From Candidatus Bathyarchaeota archaeon (lineage in GTDB: Archaea > Thermoproteota > Bathyarchaeia > Bathyarchaeales > Bathycorpusculaceae): 64,000 nt of DNA. The position numbers and the translations under genes were made by a program. Positions 267 through 7,558 of the stretch are shown here, piece after piece (position 1 is the first letter of the stretch; every line of letters starts with the position of its first letter). Location of the stretch: assembly GCA_963707955.1 (NCBI GenBank), contig OY970176.1, positions 1,600,001-1,664,000 on the forward strand. The letters run 5' to 3'. Under the pieces are notes generated by a model. That model saw only the letters and a list, made by a program, of their open reading frames with translations. It was not told where the DNA came from and did no database searches.

Positions 267-1188
267 TCAACACATACCAAGTTTCTTCAAGTCGCTGAGT
301 GTTGGCAGGCCACTTCTCGCGCCCATGGCAGTGATGGACCTTGAGGCGACGAAATTGCCTATTTTTCCCGCTTCATTGATGTTCTTGCCGGAGAGTAGCC
401 CGAATATGAAGCCAGCGTCGAAAGCGTCGCCAGCTCCGGTGGTGTCCACAACCTTGACTTTGAAGGGTTCCACCAAGTGGCTTTCATCTCTGTCTATGAC
501 GTAGCATCCTTTGCTTCCCAGCTTTACAGCTAAGACTTCAACACCTTCATCAATTAGCAATCGTGCGCCTGCTTTATAGTCAGTCTTGCCTGTTAGCAAT
601 GCAATTTCACCTGCGTTTGGCATCATTACAGAGGTCTTGTCTATAATGGGCTCTAGTTTCGTTAATCCGATTCCTGCGTACAGTGCTCCAGGGTCGAAGC
701 TCACTCTGACCTCTTTTGGCAGCTGGCCAACAATTTTCTTCTGCGTTTCGAATGACTGTTTTCCAACAAAGGATGATAAATGCAAGAACCTAGTGCTTGA
801 CGCATATTCACTGTCTATTTGGTCAAGTCTTATTGTGTCGTTCACGCCTGGGTCGATGTACAATGCGCGTTCTCCCCCTTTGCCCACGAAACCCATCACT
901 TTGCCGCTTCTTCCCGTCGTCGCAACCGTTACGCCTCTTGTGTCAACGCCTTCTTTTCGAAAATCTTGAAGCAGCATTCTTCCTTCAGCGTCGCTGGCAA
1001 CCTTACCGATGAAACCCACCTTGCAGCCAAGTCTCGCCAAGGCCACCATGGTGTTTGCCGCTGAAACCGCCGCAAGCCTCTGAGTGATCGACTACAAAAC
1101 TTTCTTCCTCGGCAACGGCTATTCTGTTCACCTTAAACAGCTTGTCAACGTTGAGGGCGCCGAATCCTACGGCATCGAGTTTGCTCAT
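267..1188 (-). CDS. PfkB/ribokinase-family kinase (EhaT-like), split by a 1-nt insertion at about 1064-1066
   Basis: N-terminal GFGALNVD in ORF 1003..1188 and C-terminal DTTGAGDAF in ORF 267..1049. Removing one T from GGT TTCA restores GGSAANTMV. Confidence 0.88.
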
Positions 1189-2099
1189 CGAAACAGCTCT
1201 TTCAAATTTATCTTGTAGTCGCCCAACTTTCCACCGTAGTTTCCTGCAGAAATCCTCACCACGCCATCAACGCTCAACGCCGCTTCTATGCCGGCCTTCA
1301 TTGCTTTTCTAACCGCGTCCATGGAGATGCCGTTGATCACTATTTCTGGGATATAGTTGACGCCTTCTGGCACTTTGGACTCGCCTTTTAGCTTCCTTTT
1401 CAGGGAGGGGCAGTACGGATGGTTTGTGGTGGGTCCTATCAGCGGGAAACGTGTTTCAGTCTTCGACCCGGCTGAGCAGACGTCGAATGGTGTTGTTACG
1501 CCCTCAACCTGATGTATGGCTTCCAGTGCTTTCTTTCCGGCGTCGACTACTTGTTTTTTCGTTTTGCCCATGTACCAGAAGTTGCCGCCAGCGATTCCTC
1601 TCGCGTAGCCGATGTAGCGCTCTATGAGAAAGTCAGGCACCATGATTGGAACGACGATCACTTTTTTTCCGTATAGTTGCTCTTCCCACTCATACCCGTC
1701 TCCGCAGTGTCCAACCCTTTCCATCATGTCCATTTTCCCCTCAGGCTTCACGGACAAAGCGTCGAACACCGCTGTGAATGGTTTTACCAAGATATCTTGA
1801 CGAATTCGGTAGGAAAGCTCCTTTTCAAAACGGTCAAGCATGTTTTCTAAAGGTTTCCCTCTGTCTAGGCCCTTCCAGAACTGCAAGATTGCTCCTTTTC
1901 GGTCGTCGGGCGTTTCATTCTTCCCGAGCAGTCTTTCGACTCCGCTGTCAAGTCTGCCTATAACACCCGACGGCGTTGCGGTCGCATCGTCAGCAGCCTT
2001 CTTAACTGTCTCCTCGTCATCGGCGGTCACTATCACGCGACAGTATAATCCTGAAAAGGCTTCGGCATATGTGTCTTCAATCAAGTTTTTCTTGATCAA
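1185..2099 (-). CDS. Formylmethanofuran:H4MPT formyltransferase (Ftr)-family protein (EhaS-like paralogue)
   Basis: [10 protein letters not shown]-terminus, [37 protein letters not shown] and [11 protein letters not shown] motifs of the Ftr family. Confidence 0.9.
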
Positions 2100-2101
2100 A
2101 C

Positions 2102-3184
2102 CTATCCTAACCTGCTGATAGCTTCTCCTCTGACCTTCTTTCTAAACGCACTACTCTTCTTCGCTATGTCTCTCATGTTTTCTCTCGTTATTATTCTGGC
2201 TTTGGGCAGTTCTCGAGGATGCAGTTTGAGAAAACGTTCTCGCAAGTCCTTGTTCACTGAACTATTCTCTAGTGTTCTGCGATTCCATTTCGCCACTAGG
2301 TTTAGTGTTTTCGTTTTTCCGAACCTGATGAAAATGTCGGCGATCAGCGCTGTGGTCAAACTGTCCGCGGAGAGCAGTGCGATTTCAGCGTTTCTGACAG
2401 CGTATTGGTTCCCGTTGAATGAAATAGTCAGACCGCCGTTTTCCTTCACAAGCTTGAAGGCTTTCTCGTCAGTTATGCTGTCACCGACATACATCGTGTT
2501 CCTTAAATCCACGCGTTCCTTGCGTGTGATGTCCTTTATTGCTTCAGCTTTTTCTCTGCCGCCAACAGGTTTGACTTCAGAATAGATTTTTCCGATTGGC
2601 ATTTTGGCAATGGTTTTCCAGAAAATCTGGTCCAGCCTTCGAATTGTTGTCTGTGTCTCTTCTGGAAGGTCTTTTAGGCTCTTCGTTTCTGCTGGATTCT
2701 CGAACACGGGTAACTGCGCGATTTCACGGCCAGCCTTTTTTAAGCAGTCTTTCTCCTCTGAGGTTATGGTGTATGCGTCCAAGCTGAGTTTAGTGCAGTA
2801 GGTTTTCTCAAACGAAAACTCGAGAGCCTTGCATAAGGCCCTGATGTAATGTTCGTAGCTTGTGCTGATGATGTATGCCGGCGAAATGCTTCTCACGTGT
2901 CGAAGCAAGTTCCCTGCGTGTGCGATCAGGACGAGGTTTCTGGCAGAAAACTGCCTGATCTCCTCGTCTGTGACATCGTAAGCCTTGAGGAAGGGTAGCA
3001 CAAGCTTCAACGTGTCGCCTGCCTGGTAACCAGGTCTTCTCAACACGTCTGAAAGGGCATCATCATACCTGCTTACAACGGTGAAGAGTCTGTCGCCATG
3101 TGGGACAAAATGTGACAGCGTTTCGAGAGCGTTGTCGTTCTTCGAAATGGGTCCTTCACAGTCTGTGATGAAAAGCCTCTTCAC
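2102..3184 (-). CDS. HAD-superfamily hydrolase (EhaR-like)
   Basis: Motif I variant [13 protein letters not shown], motif II IISTSY and motif [10 protein letters not shown]. Start overlaps the purD stop (GTGA). Confidence 0.75.
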
Positions 3185-4608
3185 GACTTTCGCCTCAACT
3201 TCTCCATGTGTCTTACGCTCTTCTCTATGTGGTCTTCTGAGGCTATGTCGGTTCGATTCCAGAGGGCTCCACCCCGTATTGCCTTCAAGCCTTCAAGGGA
3301 GATCTGCCGAGCTTTTTCTATGCTTTCGCTGATCCCCACGGCGCACACAGCTCTGGATTTGAGGGCGAAGATCCTGCCGTCGCGTTTTTCCATTGATGCA
3401 GGGTAGATTCGAATATCGCCACCGTATTTCTTGCTCAGTTCATAAGCTCTGGTCAAGTCGACTGGTCTGTCAATGCTGTCTGCCTTGATAAGGCTTGGGA
3501 AGGTTTCTGCGTATCCGCCGTAGGAAGGTGGAGCCTTGTAGGTTACTACGGTCGCGGCTTTTTCTAATTGGAGCCTTGTCAAGTTTCCTTCCAACATTTT
3601 GAAGCAGACATCAATGAAATCATCCTTCAAAACGGGCATTATGTTGATTATCTCGGGGTCTCCTGGTCGACTGTTGTTCTCAAGAATCTTCAGTTTTCTG
3701 CGTGTGTGCATGAACGCAACGTAGAAAGGAACGCCTCGAAGGGCTGAGCTGTCTTCTTCTTTCCATTCTTGAAAGATCGTGTTGACGACGTTCAGCTCCT
3801 TGGCGCGATCAGCATCGGTCAGAAACGGCAACACGTCTCCGACGCCCTTGTACGAACCCATTCCTCCTGTGTTCGTTCCCTTATCGTCGTCGAACGCCCG
3901 TTTGTAGTCTCTTGTATCCGGCAGGGGTATGAGGTGTTTTCCGTCGCAGAACGCCTGAAAGCTTGATTCCTCTCCTTCGATTTTTTCTTCTATTATCACT
4001 GAACCGTGCTGGTAGTTTGAGAGGAAGTGCTCGAACAGCTGTTCTCGGTTCGTAAAGTCGTCACCCCAGACACCGACGCCCTTTCCAGCCGCTGGCTTGT
4101 CCGGCTTAACTACAGCTTGGTCAGCCAGTTTGTCGAGCCAATCGTAAACGTCCTTCTTGACTTCTGCAAGGGTTTTGTACTCTTTTGGGTTGAATATCTT
4201 GAAGCGCGGGTTGACTTCGGGGGCGACTCTTTTGAAAAAGAGCCGTTGTTGAACCTTGCTTCCCTCGATAGCGCATCGCTTTGTTGGACAGATCAGGGGT
4301 ATTCCTGTTCGTTTCTCTATGAGATCCCGTATTCCCTCGATTATCGGTTTTTCAGGGCCCACGATGCCGAAGTCAATTCTATGTTTATTCATCTCTGCGA
4401 ATTTGCAGATTTCCTCAACATTGAGGTCAGGTATTACAACGTGTTTTGTTGCCCTTTTCGCGTTGAAGGGGTTGCGTTGCTTATCGGCAACGTAGATCTC
4501 CACCTTGTAGTTTCGGCTGCGGGCGAAAGCGTCAACCATGGCTGCTTCTCTTGACCCATAAGAAACAACGAGTACGCCTACTTTTTCCATGAGTAACCCT
4601 TCTGCCAT
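3181..4608 (-). CDS. purD: Phosphoribosylamine--glycine ligase
   Basis: GSREAA, VGPE, VVKPDKPAAGKGV, DYKRAFDDDKGTNTGGMGSY and RPGDPE motifs. Confidence 0.92.
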   Translation of the reverse strand: MAEGLLMEKVGVLVVSYGSREAAMVDAFARSRNYKVEIYVADKQRNPFNAKRATKHVVIPDLNVEEICKFAEMNKHRIDFGIVGPEKPIIEGIRDLIEKRTGIPLICPTKRCAIEGSKVQQRLFFKRVAPEVNPRFKIFNPKEYKTLAEVKKDVYDWLDKLADQAVVKPDKPAAGKGVGVWGDDFTNREQLFEHFLSNYQHGSVIIEEKIEGEESSFQAFCDGKHLIPLPDTRDYKRAFDDDKGTNTGGMGSYKGVGDVLPFLTDADRAKELNVVNTIFQEWKEEDSSALRGVPFYVAFMHTRRKLKILENNSRPGDPEIINIMPVLKDDFIDVCFKMLEGNLTRLQLEKAATVVTYKAPPSYGGYAETFPSLIKADSIDRPVDLTRAYELSKKYGGDIRIYPASMEKRDGRIFALKSRAVCAVGISESIEKARQISLEGLKAIRGGALWNRTDIASEDHIEKSVRHMEKLRRKS

Positions 4609-4637
4609 CGGATTGACCGTGAAGACCAGTTCTTGTG

Positions 4638-6143
4638 CTAGGCTCTTGGAACGGCTTCTTCCATTTCGTACAGTCTTTCTCTCTCTTCAAAACCCTGCAA
4701 GAACCGTTTCTTCATCTCATCGGCTATTGCTTGGGCCAGCGGTGTTGGATATTTGCCTGTTATGCACCCCGTGCACAACTCGTCTTGCTTAAACCCCGTT
4801 GCTTGTACCAAGCCTTCGAGTGACTGGTAGCACACTCCGTCTGCCCCTATGATCTTTGCGATTTCTTCTGTGCTGTGTTTTGAGCCTATGAGTTGGCCAT
4901 ATGTTGCCATGTCTATTCCGTACAGACATGGTCCGACTATCCGTGGAAAAGTAACGAAAACATATACTTTCTCGGCGCCCATCCTGCGCAATTTGTCAAC
5001 TATGACCCTTGTCGTGTCCCCTCTGACGATGCTGTCTTCGGTCACTATGATGCGTTTTCCTTCGATTCTGGGACCGAGGATGTTGATTTTCCTCTCTATC
5101 GTTGGGCTTCGGTCCTTGCTAAGTAGGATGAATGCCCTCTCGGTTACGTAGCGGTGTCTTCGTGAAGCCCTTTCCCATCTCAACCCAGAAGCTTCGTGAA
5201 CGCCGAGGGCCGAGTCGTCGCCTGTTTCAGGCACGGAAAGAATTATATCCGCGTCCTTGACAACCTTCGGATTCTCTCTCACGAGGTTTCTTCCAAATTC
5301 TTCACGAATCTCATAGACGTACTTGCTGTCAAACCGTGAGTCTGGCCTTGCAAAGTATGCGAATTCAAAGGCGCAGAAAGCCTTTCCTTTCCCGTTTACG
5401 AGCTTCTGCCTTTCAAACCCTTTGTTTGAAACCGTGACGAGCTCTCCCGGCTGCAGCTCGAAATCTCTTACGAAACCGTTTATGTCTAAACTGGCGGTTT
5501 CAGAAGAGAATGCATACGTTGAGTGGTCTTCGCTGTGGCCTGCGCACAACGGCCTTATTCCATGCGGGTCCTTAAAGGCGAAGAGATTGCCGTTTTGGTC
5601 TATGCACGCCACAGAAAAGGCTCCGTCGATTTCTTCCATACATGTCCCAACGGCGGATGTTAGATCCTTTCCTTTCAAGAGTTCGATCAGCAGTTTGTAG
5701 CAGATCAAATCTGCGTCGCATTCAGATGTAAACTGTGGAAACTCCTTGCATATCTCTTTTCGAAGCTCGAACGTGTTGACCACGTTGCCGTTGTATGAGA
5801 CGGCGAGCCCATGACCTTGTTTTGAAGCTGTCACTGGTTGCGTTCCTTCCACGAGCGATTTCTCGTCGCATTTTCCGGACGTTGTGTACCTCACGTTTCC
5901 AATGCCGACATTTCCAGGCAACCGGCCAAACCATTCTTGAATTGCGCTCGTTCTAATCTTCGGCACGAGGTCGAGGCTTCTGTGAACGTGGAACTTTCCA
6001 TCAAAATACGTGAGGAAACCATGAGACTGATGTCCCCTGTGGTTTTCAGCCCGTAAACCCCAATAAATGTATTGAAACACTGGCCGTTTATCGTAGTTTA
6101 CAGCTGCATATACTCCACATGCGATCTTCGGCTGGTCTCCCAT
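4638..6143 (-). CDS. purF: Amidophosphoribosyltransferase
   Basis: Propeptide then CGV, NHRGHQSHG, VRYTTSG, CAFEFAYFARPDS, PRPP motif EDSIVRGDT, and Fe-S cysteines CLYGID and CTGC. Confidence 0.95.
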   Translation of the reverse strand: MGDQPKIACGVYAAVNYDKRPVFQYIYWGLRAENHRGHQSHGFLTYFDGKFHVHRSLDLVPKIRTSAIQEWFGRLPGNVGIGNVRYTTSGKCDEKSLVEGTQPVTASKQGHGLAVSYNGNVVNTFELRKEICKEFPQFTSECDADLICYKLLIELLKGKDLTSAVGTCMEEIDGAFSVACIDQNGNLFAFKDPHGIRPLCAGHSEDHSTYAFSSETASLDINGFVRDFELQPGELVTVSNKGFERQKLVNGKGKAFCAFEFAYFARPDSRFDSKYVYEIREEFGRNLVRENPKVVKDADIILSVPETGDDSALGVHEASGLRWERASRRHRYVTERAFILLSKDRSPTIERKINILGPRIEGKRIIVTEDSIVRGDTTRVIVDKLRRMGAEKVYVFVTFPRIVGPCLYGIDMATYGQLIGSKHSTEEIAKIIGADGVCYQSLEGLVQATGFKQDELCTGCITGKYPTPLAQAIADEMKKRFLQGFEERERLYEMEEAVPRA

Positions 6144-6238: not shown

Positions 6239-7558
6239 TCATGGGGTCAGTCTGAACTTGTCTCGAGGATAAAGTGTGACTTCTCTAATGTTGTTCTTAC
6301 CTGTTAACATCATTGTCAGCCTTTCCAGACCTATTGCCCAACCTGCATGCGGCGGCATTCCATAATCAAAAGCTTGTAGGTGGTGCTTGAAGGCTTCTGG
6401 GCTCAGACCCTTCTCCCTAAGCCGCTTTATGAGCAGGTCTTTTGAGGCTATTCTCGTACCGCCTGAAACGAGCTCCAACCAGCGCCACATCAGGTCGAAG
6501 CCTTCAGAGATTTCGGGGCAGTCGTCACGCGGCTTTGTGTAGAAGGCTCTTGTCACCGTTGGCCAGTCAACTATGAAGTAGAAGTACGGATGAAGCTTGC
6601 CCAGCTTTCTATAGGCTGGTGTCGGTATGTCCTCTCCCCATGGAATCTCCATGCCTTCTCGGTTCAGTTCTTCGAGAACCTCAGAGTATTTTAATCGTTT
6701 GAAAGGAACGTCCGGCACCTTCAAGCTGTGTTTCAGCGTCTTCAGTTCCCTTTGACATTTTTCAGCGACGGTCCTGCAAACGTGCTGCATGAGCTGCTCA
6801 AGTATCTGCATTACATCTTCAGCTGTTGCGAAAGCCTGTTCGATGTCTATCGACACAAACTCGCTCAGGTGGCTCCGAGTGTGCGACTCTTCAGCTCTGA
6901 AAAAGGGTCCGATCTCGAAGACTTTTTCCAGGCTCATGACAAGCTCTTCTTTGTACAACTGCGGGCTTTGAGCCAGGTATGCTTTTCTGTCAAAATAGTC
7001 AAGCTGAAAGAGTGCGGAGCCTCCTTCTGTCGCTGAGGCAATTATGCGAGGCGTGTGCACCTCTAAGAAACCTCTTTCGAACAGGAAACCTCTGATTGCT
7101 TCTACCGCGGTGTGTTGGACCTTGAAGACCGCGATGTTTTTTTCTCGACACAAGTCTAGTGTTCGTGCTTCCAAGCACGTTTCGATACTTGCTGGGGTCT
7201 TGTCACAAATGTCTATTGGCAACTCTCGCGTGGCCGTGCTCAGAATCTTGATGTCCTCCGGTAGGACTTCGACGCCTCTTTGCGTCATGTCAGTCTTCTT
7301 CACCGTTCCTTTCACGGCTATGCTGTAGCGCCTCTGCAGTCCGTCGGACTTCGATATGACTTCGCTGGGGGCCTTCTTTCGAAGGATAGTGACTTGAATC
7401 GTGCCTTCCCTGTCCTGCAATATTATGAAGCGAATTCCACCCAGGTCTCTTATTTCCTGGATCCAACCGAAAAGGGTAACCTCTTGGCCGTCGAGGTCAG
7501 GTTTAACGTCAACAGAATAGTGCGTTCTGCGCCAATCATCAATGGAATCCAGTTTCAT
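6239..7558 (-). CDS. aspS: Aspartyl-tRNA synthetase, archaeal type
   Basis: OB-fold GWIQEIRDLGG, YLAQSPQLYK, FRAEESHT and GMPPHAGWAIGLER. Confidence 0.95.
   Translation of the reverse strand: MKLDSIDDWRRTHYSVDVKPDLDGQEVTLFGWIQEIRDLGGIRFIILQDREGTIQVTILRKKAPSEVISKSDGLQRRYSIAVKGTVKKTDMTQRGVEVLPEDIKILSTATRELPIDICDKTPASIETCLEARTLDLCREKNIAVFKVQHTAVEAIRGFLFERGFLEVHTPRIIASATEGGSALFQLDYFDRKAYLAQSPQLYKEELVMSLEKVFEIGPFFRAEESHTRSHLSEFVSIDIEQAFATAEDVMQILEQLMQHVCRTVAEKCQRELKTLKHSLKVPDVPFKRLKYSEVLEELNREGMEIPWGEDIPTPAYRKLGKLHPYFYFIVDWPTVTRAFYTKPRDDCPEISEGFDLMWRWLELVSGGTRIASKDLLIKRLREKGLSPEAFKHHLQAFDYGMPPHAGWAIGLERLTMMLTGKNNIREVTLYPRDKFRLTP

Follow-up and report, generated by a model that had tools for sequence, protein, structure and literature searches.

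A candidate formyltransferase module for the third step of purine synthesis in Bathyarchaeia

In the third step of purine synthesis glycinamide ribonucleotide (GAR) is formylated to formylglycinamide ribonucleotide (FGAR), a reaction for which two enzymes, PurN and PurT, have been described. The enzyme has lacked an assignment in several archaeal orders since a curation of 2011 (PMC3261824) and was still listed as unidentified in a survey of 2022 (PMC9012536). According to the passages on this step in the 2011 curation, no GAR formyltransferase was identifiable in seven Euryarchaeota, i.e. two Archaeoglobi, four Methanobacteriales (printed as 'Methanomicrobiales') and Methanopyrus kandleri; Methanothermobacter thermautotrophicus is described there as a purine prototroph (PMC3261824). 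The sections concerned of the 2022 survey report that PurN and PurT are lacking in ANME-1 (anaerobic methanotrophic archaea), Archaeoglobales and Methanobacteriales and, separately, that an uncharacterized clade of formyltransferase homologs, Ftr2, is found in ANME-1, ANME-2a/b, Archaeoglobales, M. kandleri and M. marburgensis; the passages do not connect the two (PMC9012536). In Methanothermobacter, the proteins EhaS and EhaT are encoded by genes that are co-transcribed with hydrogenase genes, as stated in a part of PMC3087415. The window analyzed here, a stretch of 64,000 nucleotides from a Candidatus Bathyarchaeota archaeon (assembly GCA_963707955.1, contig OY970176.1, positions 1,600,001 to 1,664,000), holds a locus in which purF and purD are followed by the genes for an EhaR-like protein of the HAD fold, an Ftr2 protein and a PfkB-type kinase.

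All five genes are read from the minus strand, one behind the other (Table 1), and probably form one purine operon, of which the last three genes would supply the third step. We estimate the probability that this trio performs the conversion of GAR to FGAR at about 0.65-0.7. A first-pass annotation, made from the letters of the sequence, had suggested that the trio might be the missing GAR transformylase system, and at the level of function the proposal is supported by evidence that is comparative throughout. The layout described in that annotation was recovered as well: the family scans agree with the gene names, the stop of purD and the start of the HAD gene overlap in GTGA, the HAD gene and ftr2 are separated by 2 nucleotides, the stop of ftr2 and the start of pfkB overlap in ATGA (the ATG of pfkB at 1188), and the locus is free of hydrogenase genes. 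PurF shows the GATase_7 and GATase_6 domains, with the Cys at residue 9 behind a short leader. A literature search, for which most subscription journals and supplements were out of reach, returned no paper that ties Ftr2 or EhaR-EhaS-EhaT to GAR formylation; a term search of PMC11237513 and PMC9635834 brought up no relevant passage either.

The genome consists of a single closed contig of 2,346,764 bp (completeness 97.2). The lack of purN and purT, annotated initially for the window, extends to the whole genome: neither TIGR00639 nor TIGR01142 gave a match at E<=0.01, and the control genomes were matched. McrA was not found in the genome either. Some 3.3 kb past pfkB, beyond a small winged helix-turn-helix gene and two genes on the opposite strand, purM, purS, purL and purQ follow on the strand of the operon. 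PurP was found in the genome and PurH was not, which indicates that the second formylation of the pathway is covered by the formate-dependent enzyme. Among the purine steps examined, the third is the only one without a gene.

The arrangement recurs in related genomes. HAD relatives were searched in GTDB species genomes with a 14-row HAD alignment; the counts given here concern the best 80 of 586 confirmed loci, 79 of them from Bathyarchaeia, with HAD identities of 51-89%. The Methanobacteriota and Halobacteriota were covered by way of source names, PDB entry 1Y8A and published papers. The purD gene lay directly upstream of the HAD gene in all 72 loci that offered room for it, and purF preceded purD in 67 of 69. 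Downstream, ftr2 was found within 250 nucleotides of the HAD gene in 71 of 77 loci and pfkB directly behind ftr2 in 67 of the 75 with room, and 58 of 65 loci showed all five genes in order. The seven exceptions comprise three inserts of 1-1.9 kb between the HAD gene and ftr2, a gap of 1 kb between purF and purD, a pfkB at 3.4 kb, a filter artefact that resulted from a split BLAST hit, and locus L050. In L050, as in L055 and L068 (the latter two lacking room on both sides), an ftr2-pfkB pair with 71-74% identity is located elsewhere in the genome. Judged by gene order, the five-gene arrangement is not a matter of chance, and the linkage to pur genes, for which a synteny test had been advised, recurs in two phyla and also in rearranged form. 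In one such case (L098, genome G301) pfkB-ftr2 and, divergent from it, purD-HAD share a single cluster with guaA and purM-purF-purL-purQ-purC.

What occupies the slot behind purF-purD in the relatives is, in our view, the strongest new argument that the comparisons offer for a role in the third step. Four kinds of occupant were encountered: PurN, PurT, the trio HAD-Ftr2-PfkB, and a combination of a PurN variant (hereafter PurN') with the HAD protein and PfkB. Most of the 80 loci carry the trio, as the window does. In L093 (purL-purF-purD-purN-folD) a classical purN with folD behind it takes the slot, and likewise in L084 and L085. L091 reads purQ-purL-purF-purF'-purD-purT, with a PurT above the cut-off, and L094 reads purF-purF'-purD followed by a full-length purT-like gene. 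In L087 and L088 the order is purF-purD-PurN'-HAD-PfkB with overlapping stops and starts, PurN' being 281-330 amino acids long in this slot. The classical purN and purT operons within this class contain neither the HAD gene nor pfkB.

PurN' is a distinct PurN-like subfamily of 278-330 amino acids that is always found beside purD and/or the EhaR-like HAD gene. It keeps the catalytic N-x-H-P and Asp and carries extra inserts. In classical PurN the loop SG-x-G-S/T-N binds the phosphate of GAR; PurN' has SSGRD-x-AA where the classical PurNs of these genomes have this loop, and if the loop indeed serves that purpose PurN' would fit an acceptor without a phosphate. Ftr2 was not found in the two PurN' genomes that were tested (G319 and G314), which showed just an Ftr1-like copy (41% identity). 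Ftr2 and PurN' are thus alternatives within one three-part module. Fusions extend the picture. Protein P0174 (599 amino acids) consists of PurN' fused to an EhaR-like HAD domain, and in P0198 (899 amino acids) and P0200 (961 amino acids) the same type of HAD domain is fused to a very divergent PurT-like ATP-grasp domain of about 540-600 amino acids, for which the best NCBIfam model is PurT, with 33 bits over a short stretch. Taken together, the fusions and the operons indicate that three unrelated formyl-transfer catalysts have been joined to the same HAD family, and that the formyl-transfer part of the module is exchangeable: it can be Ftr2 or PurN', with a PurT-like domain also found fused to the HAD protein.

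The presence and absence of the genes were counted in 151 Bathyarchaeia genomes of at least 80% completeness, 127 with and 24 without PurD. Among the 62 genomes that have both PurD and the HAD protein, PurN and PurT over the cut-off were found in 0 and PurT-like matches in 0; six had a PurN-like match below the cut-off and 56 none of these. The 65 genomes with PurD and without the HAD protein included 16 with PurN over the cut-off, 35 with a PurN-like match below it, 3 with PurT over the cut-off, 8 with a PurT-like match of 240-271 bits and 3 with none, which means that, sub-cut-off matches included, 62 of the 65 have a PurN- or PurT-type match. Several of the sub-cut-off genes are located directly after purD (G330, G326, G382, G366 and L094). 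The six sub-cut-off matches in the first group were five PurN' proteins, three directly beside the HAD gene and two in the same family, and one gene beside folD (G388). Of the PurD-less genomes, 20 of 24 had none of HAD, PurN and PurT, and 22 of 24 lacked the HAD module, the other two having partial HAD matches only. The module and PurN/PurT thus exclude each other among the PurD-bearing Bathyarchaeia, the anticorrelation that the first-pass annotation had expected. Since family f7 holds genera of the HAD type, the PurT-like type and the PurN type, the switch has occurred more than once. Two sets of apparent exceptions were dismissed: G020, G303, G304 and G308, which have neither the module nor PurN/PurT, all four lack PurD, and a 187-bit 'PurT' match in G301 is followed by purE and therefore represents PurK.

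The second phylum was sampled with 121 genomes, starting from the genome that holds L045 (Candidatus Thorarchaeota). In at least 14 of these, no more than about 1.7 kb separates the HAD gene from purD. One strand of L121 reads purF-purD-HAD-Ftr2-PfkB-purL-purQ-purM. L118 reads purQ-purL-purF-purD-HAD-PfkB-purE-purB-purM, and an Ftr2-like gene with the GHCGDG motif, 50-53% identical to the window Ftr2, is located elsewhere in that genome. Beyond the two phyla, EhaR-like proteins are named by their sources in ANME-2, Methanosarcinales, Archaeoglobaceae, Methanospirareceae (ANME-1), Methanopyrus, Methanomassiliicoccales and Aenigmarchaeota, and among bacteria in Ammonifex and in metagenome-assembled genomes (MAGs) of Chloroflexota and Nitrospirae. 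The Archaeoglobaceae, Methanopyrus, ANME-1 and ANME-2 in this list match lineages that are described, in the relevant passages, as lacking PurN/PurT (PMC3261824, PMC9012536). The same passages bear out the background given in the annotation, namely that PurN and PurT are reported to be absent from several archaea that use tetrahydromethanopterin (H4MPT).

One could also imagine that the trio has a task linked to Eha, as its position at the end of eha operons in methanogens suggests, or that it acts on the one-carbon (C1) cofactors methanopterin or methanofuran, in their synthesis, repair or charging; the connection to pur genes would then be secondary. Both H4MPT and methanofuran are bound by enzymes of the Ftr family, methanopterin synthesis involves ribosyl-phosphate chemistry with some steps that have no assigned enzyme, and the co-transcription of EhaS and EhaT with hydrogenase genes would fit such a task. 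We consider this improbable, given that an enzyme of the PurN type replaces Ftr2 at the same operon position, that purD and purL flank the trio in two phyla, that in Bathyarchaeia it excludes PurN/PurT and is missing from nearly all PurD-less genomes, and that the locus itself has no hydrogenase genes.

With respect to the individual proteins, Ftr2 covers both Ftr lobes over its full length (Pfam FTR 149 bits, FTR_C 197 bits) and scores 352 bits with NF002554, above the cut-off of 297. It stays below the cut-off of TIGR03119 (251 versus 292.6 bits), so that orthology to the canonical enzyme was not obtained with this equivalog model. A separate canonical ftr, for which the first-pass annotation had recommended a check, is indeed present elsewhere in the genome (Ftr1, Table 1). 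Compared to solved Ftr structures the window protein scores 175-201 bits and Ftr1 295-314 bits (against the enzyme of M. kandleri 175 and 314 bits, respectively), and the two are 38% identical to each other. Considering the low scores and the limited identity, the window gene represents a divergent paralog and not the housekeeping enzyme. The paralog is set apart by the GHCGDG motif, an insert of 9 residues and a deletion of 2 residues. Residue E252 is invariant in 29 sequences and aligns with the Glu of Y-E-I-V-I-N-G in M. kandleri Ftr; the part of PMC6926001 that deals with this site in Ftr/FhcD describes the Glu as stabilizing the oxyanion.

The HAD protein belongs to a large family, many members of which have been named EhaR. 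The Joint Genome Institute (JGI) labels homologs of the window protein 'energy-converting hydrogenase A subunit R', and at E<1e-5 there are 3456 homologs, many of them named EhaR by JGI, or 625 representatives after clustering at 50%. Homology to the EhaR-named proteins and to AF1437 of Archaeoglobus fulgidus extends over the full length; the latter, deposited as a 'hypothetical protein', is the only solved family member (PDB 1Y8A, E 2e-72). The Pfam HAD match is modest (31 bits at a cut-off of 27), and motifs I-IV of the superfamily, with the nucleophilic Asp, the Ser/Thr, the Lys and the acidic pair, have all been retained. In 58 diverse members D8-x-E10-G11, K212, G234-D235, T238-D239 and, in the C-terminal region, R352 and G353 are invariant, and S107-T108-S109, R348 and L359 nearly so (>=90%). 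Motif I reads D-x-E-G-P, where Glu replaces the second Asp of most HADs, and a tail R-K-x-V-R-G-x-x-x-G-x-L-G is conserved at the C-terminus. A complex prediction for the HAD protein and Ftr2 gave scores of 0.01 and 0.00, which have no bearing either way on binding.

The closest characterized HADs are phosphoserine phosphatases (E 4e-6 to 1e-4), and some sources name the homologs after these. It is nevertheless very improbable that the protein is an enzyme of that kind, which feeds serine into glycine and C1 units while Ftr2 and PfkB are unrelated or loosely related. The similarity does not extend beyond the core HAD motifs; large cap regions of its own and the conserved tail distinguish the family, and both the fusions to PurN' and PurT-like domains and its translational coupling to purD and ftr2 argue for a part in formylation itself. 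We further observed EhaR-like proteins annotated as phosphoserine phosphatase in the bacteria Ammonifex degensii, A. thiophilus and a Chloroflexota MAG (P0407, P0410 and P0412). A partial EhaR-like match (model positions 108-361) was seen within a 604-residue open frame of G334, a one-contig genome in which no PurD was seen, and could represent another fusion or a remnant.

PfkB-type kinases are defined by the motifs N-x-D, GG and DTxGAGD, and N-x-D, GG and DTTGAGD are indeed present in the window protein and in that of the closest species (locus L003), in line with a Pfam PfkB score of 163 bits. The best NCBIfam model is that of ribokinase (TIGR02152), at 146 bits for a 260-residue piece and thus far below the cut-off of 299.65. 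With the intact L003 ortholog as a query, the nearest solved structures are ribokinases as well (E about 1e-25, about 90-96 bits). By its family resemblance a ribokinase-like PfkB suits the 5'-OH of a ribofuranosyl compound. What had been overlooked in the first-pass annotation is that the frame of the window gene is broken near 1065/1066, leaving an open frame of 1049..267. The contigs of four public runs (X1, X2, X3 and X5) have one base fewer at 1065/1066 plus an A>G change; three of these are at least 99% identical to the window, with depths of 35, 7.7 and 6.6, and the fourth stems from another study. In L003 the frame is intact and reads GGSAANT at the break. We conclude that the break stems from an assembly error or reflects, at most, a minority allele; a pseudogene or a programmed frameshift is ruled out by the short-read contigs and the intact L003 frame. 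Other errors of the homopolymer type may be present in this closed genome.

These data allow a proposal for the order of events. PurD would make GAR, and the EhaR-like HAD protein would remove, or temporarily hold, its 5'-phosphate. With N5-formyl-H4MPT or formyl-methanofuran as the donor, Ftr2 would then formylate the glycinamide amine; this amine closely resembles the natural acceptor of Ftr, the aminomethyl group of methanofuran. Finally, the ribokinase-type PfkB would restore the 5'-phosphate with ATP, yielding FGAR for PurL. By our own energetic reasoning, the ATP that is spent would pull the near-equilibrium formyl transfer, at a cost equal to that of PurT. This order employs every one of the three enzymes a single time between known flanking intermediates, and the altered loop of PurN' fits as well, as does the resemblance of the glycinamide amine to the aminomethyl group that is formylated by enzymes of the Ftr family, as described in part of PMC6926001. 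We regard the specific order via a dephosphorylated intermediate as plausible but short of an even chance.

Several observations weigh against the assignment or the order. With the curated cut-offs alone, PurN or PurT is detected in just 19 of the 65 module-less PurD-bearing Bathyarchaeia, which implies that the complementarity within the class depends on the acceptance of the PurN-like and PurT-like matches below the cut-off. Moreover, the genomes of a single class are kin, and the counts overstate the number of independent events. In the module-bearing G388, a PurN-folD pair is present as well, on a different contig (PurN 100 bits; an assembly of 370 contigs). In the second phylum the exclusion is much weaker. 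Here the HAD protein was matched in 21 genomes (one of them, G444, weakly) and PurD in 76; with G444 excluded, PurN is also present in 8 of the 19 genomes with both, the other 11 lacking PurN and PurT alike, and the 57 with PurD and without the HAD protein divide into 44 with PurN, 3 with PurT and 10 with neither. The HAD protein is thus not strictly an alternative to PurN, and the expectation that PurN/PurT are not common in genomes with the trio holds in Bathyarchaeia (0 of 62 over the cut-off) and fails in part in the second phylum. In the PurN-bearing L119 and L120, purD is followed by a gene for 160 amino acids and then by the HAD gene, with no pfkB nearby, and the two loci of the PurT-like-HAD fusions (L101 and L102, both obtained from metagenome contigs with P0200 as the query) lack pur and PfkB neighbors. 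A PurT-type enzyme would need no phosphatase, and thermodynamics alone leaves the role of the HAD protein in such a fusion unexplained. Both the HAD gene beside purD in genomes with classical PurN and the PurT-like fusion sit badly with the dephosphorylation order. In addition, we know of no precedent in the purine pathway for a detour via a dephosphorylated intermediate.

On account of these poor fits we keep as the main rival a helper role of the HAD protein, such as phosphate parking. Ftr2 (or PurN') would then formylate phosphorylated GAR directly, and the HAD protein and PfkB would not be pathway steps. In one variant the HAD protein acts as a phosphotransferase that parks the phosphate of GAR on its Asp and returns it without net use of ATP; in the other, the HAD/PfkB pair recycles glycinamide riboside or formylglycinamide riboside that has leaked. 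HAD-IB relatives include a known phosphotransferase, ThrH, and the Glu in place of the second Asp of motif I could, as we reason, slow the hydrolysis of the aspartyl-phosphate; the absence of a PfkB neighbor at the fusions, and a HAD gene close to purD but without a nearby pfkB in the PurN-bearing L119 and L120, likewise speak for this reading. If HAD and PfkB were just helpers, however, one would not expect pfkB to follow ftr2 so faithfully, even where the two have become separated from the HAD gene, nor that both are missing from the classical purN and purT operons of the class, nor that PurN' has lost a loop that is conserved in classical PurNs. On balance we consider direct formylation with two helpers unlikely. 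The sequence of dephosphorylation, formylation and rephosphorylation is what we prefer, and on this basis we tentatively propose a third kind of GAR transformylase system, which would be modular: a HAD protein dephosphorylates GAR, an exchangeable catalyst formylates the riboside and a kinase rephosphorylates the product with ATP.

Positions are collected in Table 1, together with those of some further observations. An archaeal-type aspartyl-tRNA synthetase is encoded directly upstream of purF and recurs as a neighbor in many of the 80 related loci; in L102 such a gene precedes the fusion and its product is 67% identical to that of the window, so that the carrier is probably related. The relatives of the PurT type have two adjacent purF-like genes (purF and purF'), and a duplication of purF has likewise been described for Crenarchaeota in the curation cited above (PMC3261824, relevant part). 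In most genomes of family f57 the sole gene of the PurN type encodes a PurN-like protein of 271-296 amino acids that scores 85-106 bits (below the PurN cut-off), retains the classical loop and is extended at the C-terminus. This gene directly follows purD in G330 and G326, and its product may be an unrecognised archaeal form of PurN.

Table 1. Positions of the genes and sequence elements discussed (positions without prefix refer to the window; aa, amino acids)
Feature	Position	Strand	Remarks
PurF, amidophosphoribosyltransferase (purine step 1)	4638..6143	-	501 aa; TIGR01134 314 bits over full length (cut-off 350)
PurD, GAR synthetase (purine step 2)	3181..4608	-	475 aa; GARS_N, GARS_A and GARS_C domains; TIGR00877 251 bits (cut-off 288)
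EhaR-like HAD-fold protein	2102..3184	-	360 aa; weak HAD Pfam matches; candidate phosphatase/phosphotransferase acting on GAR
Ftr2, divergent Ftr paralog	1185..2099	-	304 aa, TTG start; candidate formyl-transfer enzyme of step 3
PfkB (ribokinase-type) kinase	267..1188	-	~306 aa after frame correction; candidate kinase for the 5'-OH of the formylated riboside
One-base insertion plus substitution in the assembly	1060..1070		breaks the PfkB frame
Aspartyl-tRNA synthetase, archaeal type	6239-7558	-	
Ftr1, canonical Ftr of the same genome	C1:1016995-1017444		
PurN'	L087:6359-7204 (-)		
PurN'	L088:8341-9333 (-)		
PurN'	L089:17799-18635 (-)		
PurN' in protein P0174			fused to HAD domain
PurT-like-HAD fusion	L101:8001-10895		
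PurT-like-HAD fusion	L102:8001-10913		
Adjacent purF and purF'	L091:6365-9192		
Adjacent purF and purF'	L094:7311-10210		
PurN-like, 271-296-aa form	L095:1476-2366	-	
PurN-like, 271-296-aa form	L096:8002-8817	-	
PurN-like, 271-296-aa form	G330:C8:11972-12553		
Partial EhaR-like match	G334:C1:1527442-1528203		

The elements that are new in this analysis are the four-way replacement at a single operon slot, the PurN' variant that excludes Ftr2, the counts conditioned on PurD, the counter-evidence from the second phylum and the correction of the PfkB frame. If the assignment is true, the textbook pathway would gain a third, unrelated solution for the formylation of GAR, and the Ftr family, known only from methanogenesis and methylotrophy, an anabolic role. 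The 'hydrogenase subunits' EhaR, EhaS and EhaT would obtain a function. The gap noted in 2011 would be filled for Methanobacteriales, Methanopyrus, Archaeoglobi and ANME-1, and a gap in the metabolic models of Bathyarchaeia, Asgard archaea, ANME and methanogens would be closed. In Bathyarchaeia, Asgard archaea and some bacteria, the C8 of purines would be linked directly to the C1 pool of the Wood-Ljungdahl pathway. The PurN' variant may use folates and hence might be compatible with E. coli.

When compared to known systems, the module would share with PurN (EC 2.1.2.2) and PurT the net reaction from GAR to FGAR, and it takes the slot after purF-purD that these occupy in relatives; the variant with PurN' even uses the PurN fold with the catalytic Asn, His and Asp. 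The difference lies in Ftr2, which has an unrelated fold, would draw its formyl group from H4MPT or methanofuran, and would work with two partner enzymes. To Ftr (EC 2.3.1.101; PDB 1FTR/2FHJ, 1M5H and 1M5S) and FhcD (6S6Y), Ftr2 is similar in both Pfam domains, in length and in the oxyanion Glu, and the chemistry of these enzymes, formyl transfer between the N5 of a pterin and a primary amine R-CH2-NH2, is that proposed for Ftr2. It differs from canonical Ftr by its own insert and motifs and by the coupling to pur genes. AF1437 (PDB 1Y8A) is an EhaR-like HAD protein with motif I D-W-E-G-P and the same C-terminal tail; it is shorter than the window protein (332 amino acids), its PDB entry assigns no function, and its source genus is reported to be without PurN and PurT in the passages concerned of PMC3261824. 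Finally, EhaR-EhaS-EhaT, at the end of the Methanothermobacter eha operon, represent by name the same three families as the window trio; the trio in the window is apart from any hydrogenase and is attached to purF-purD.

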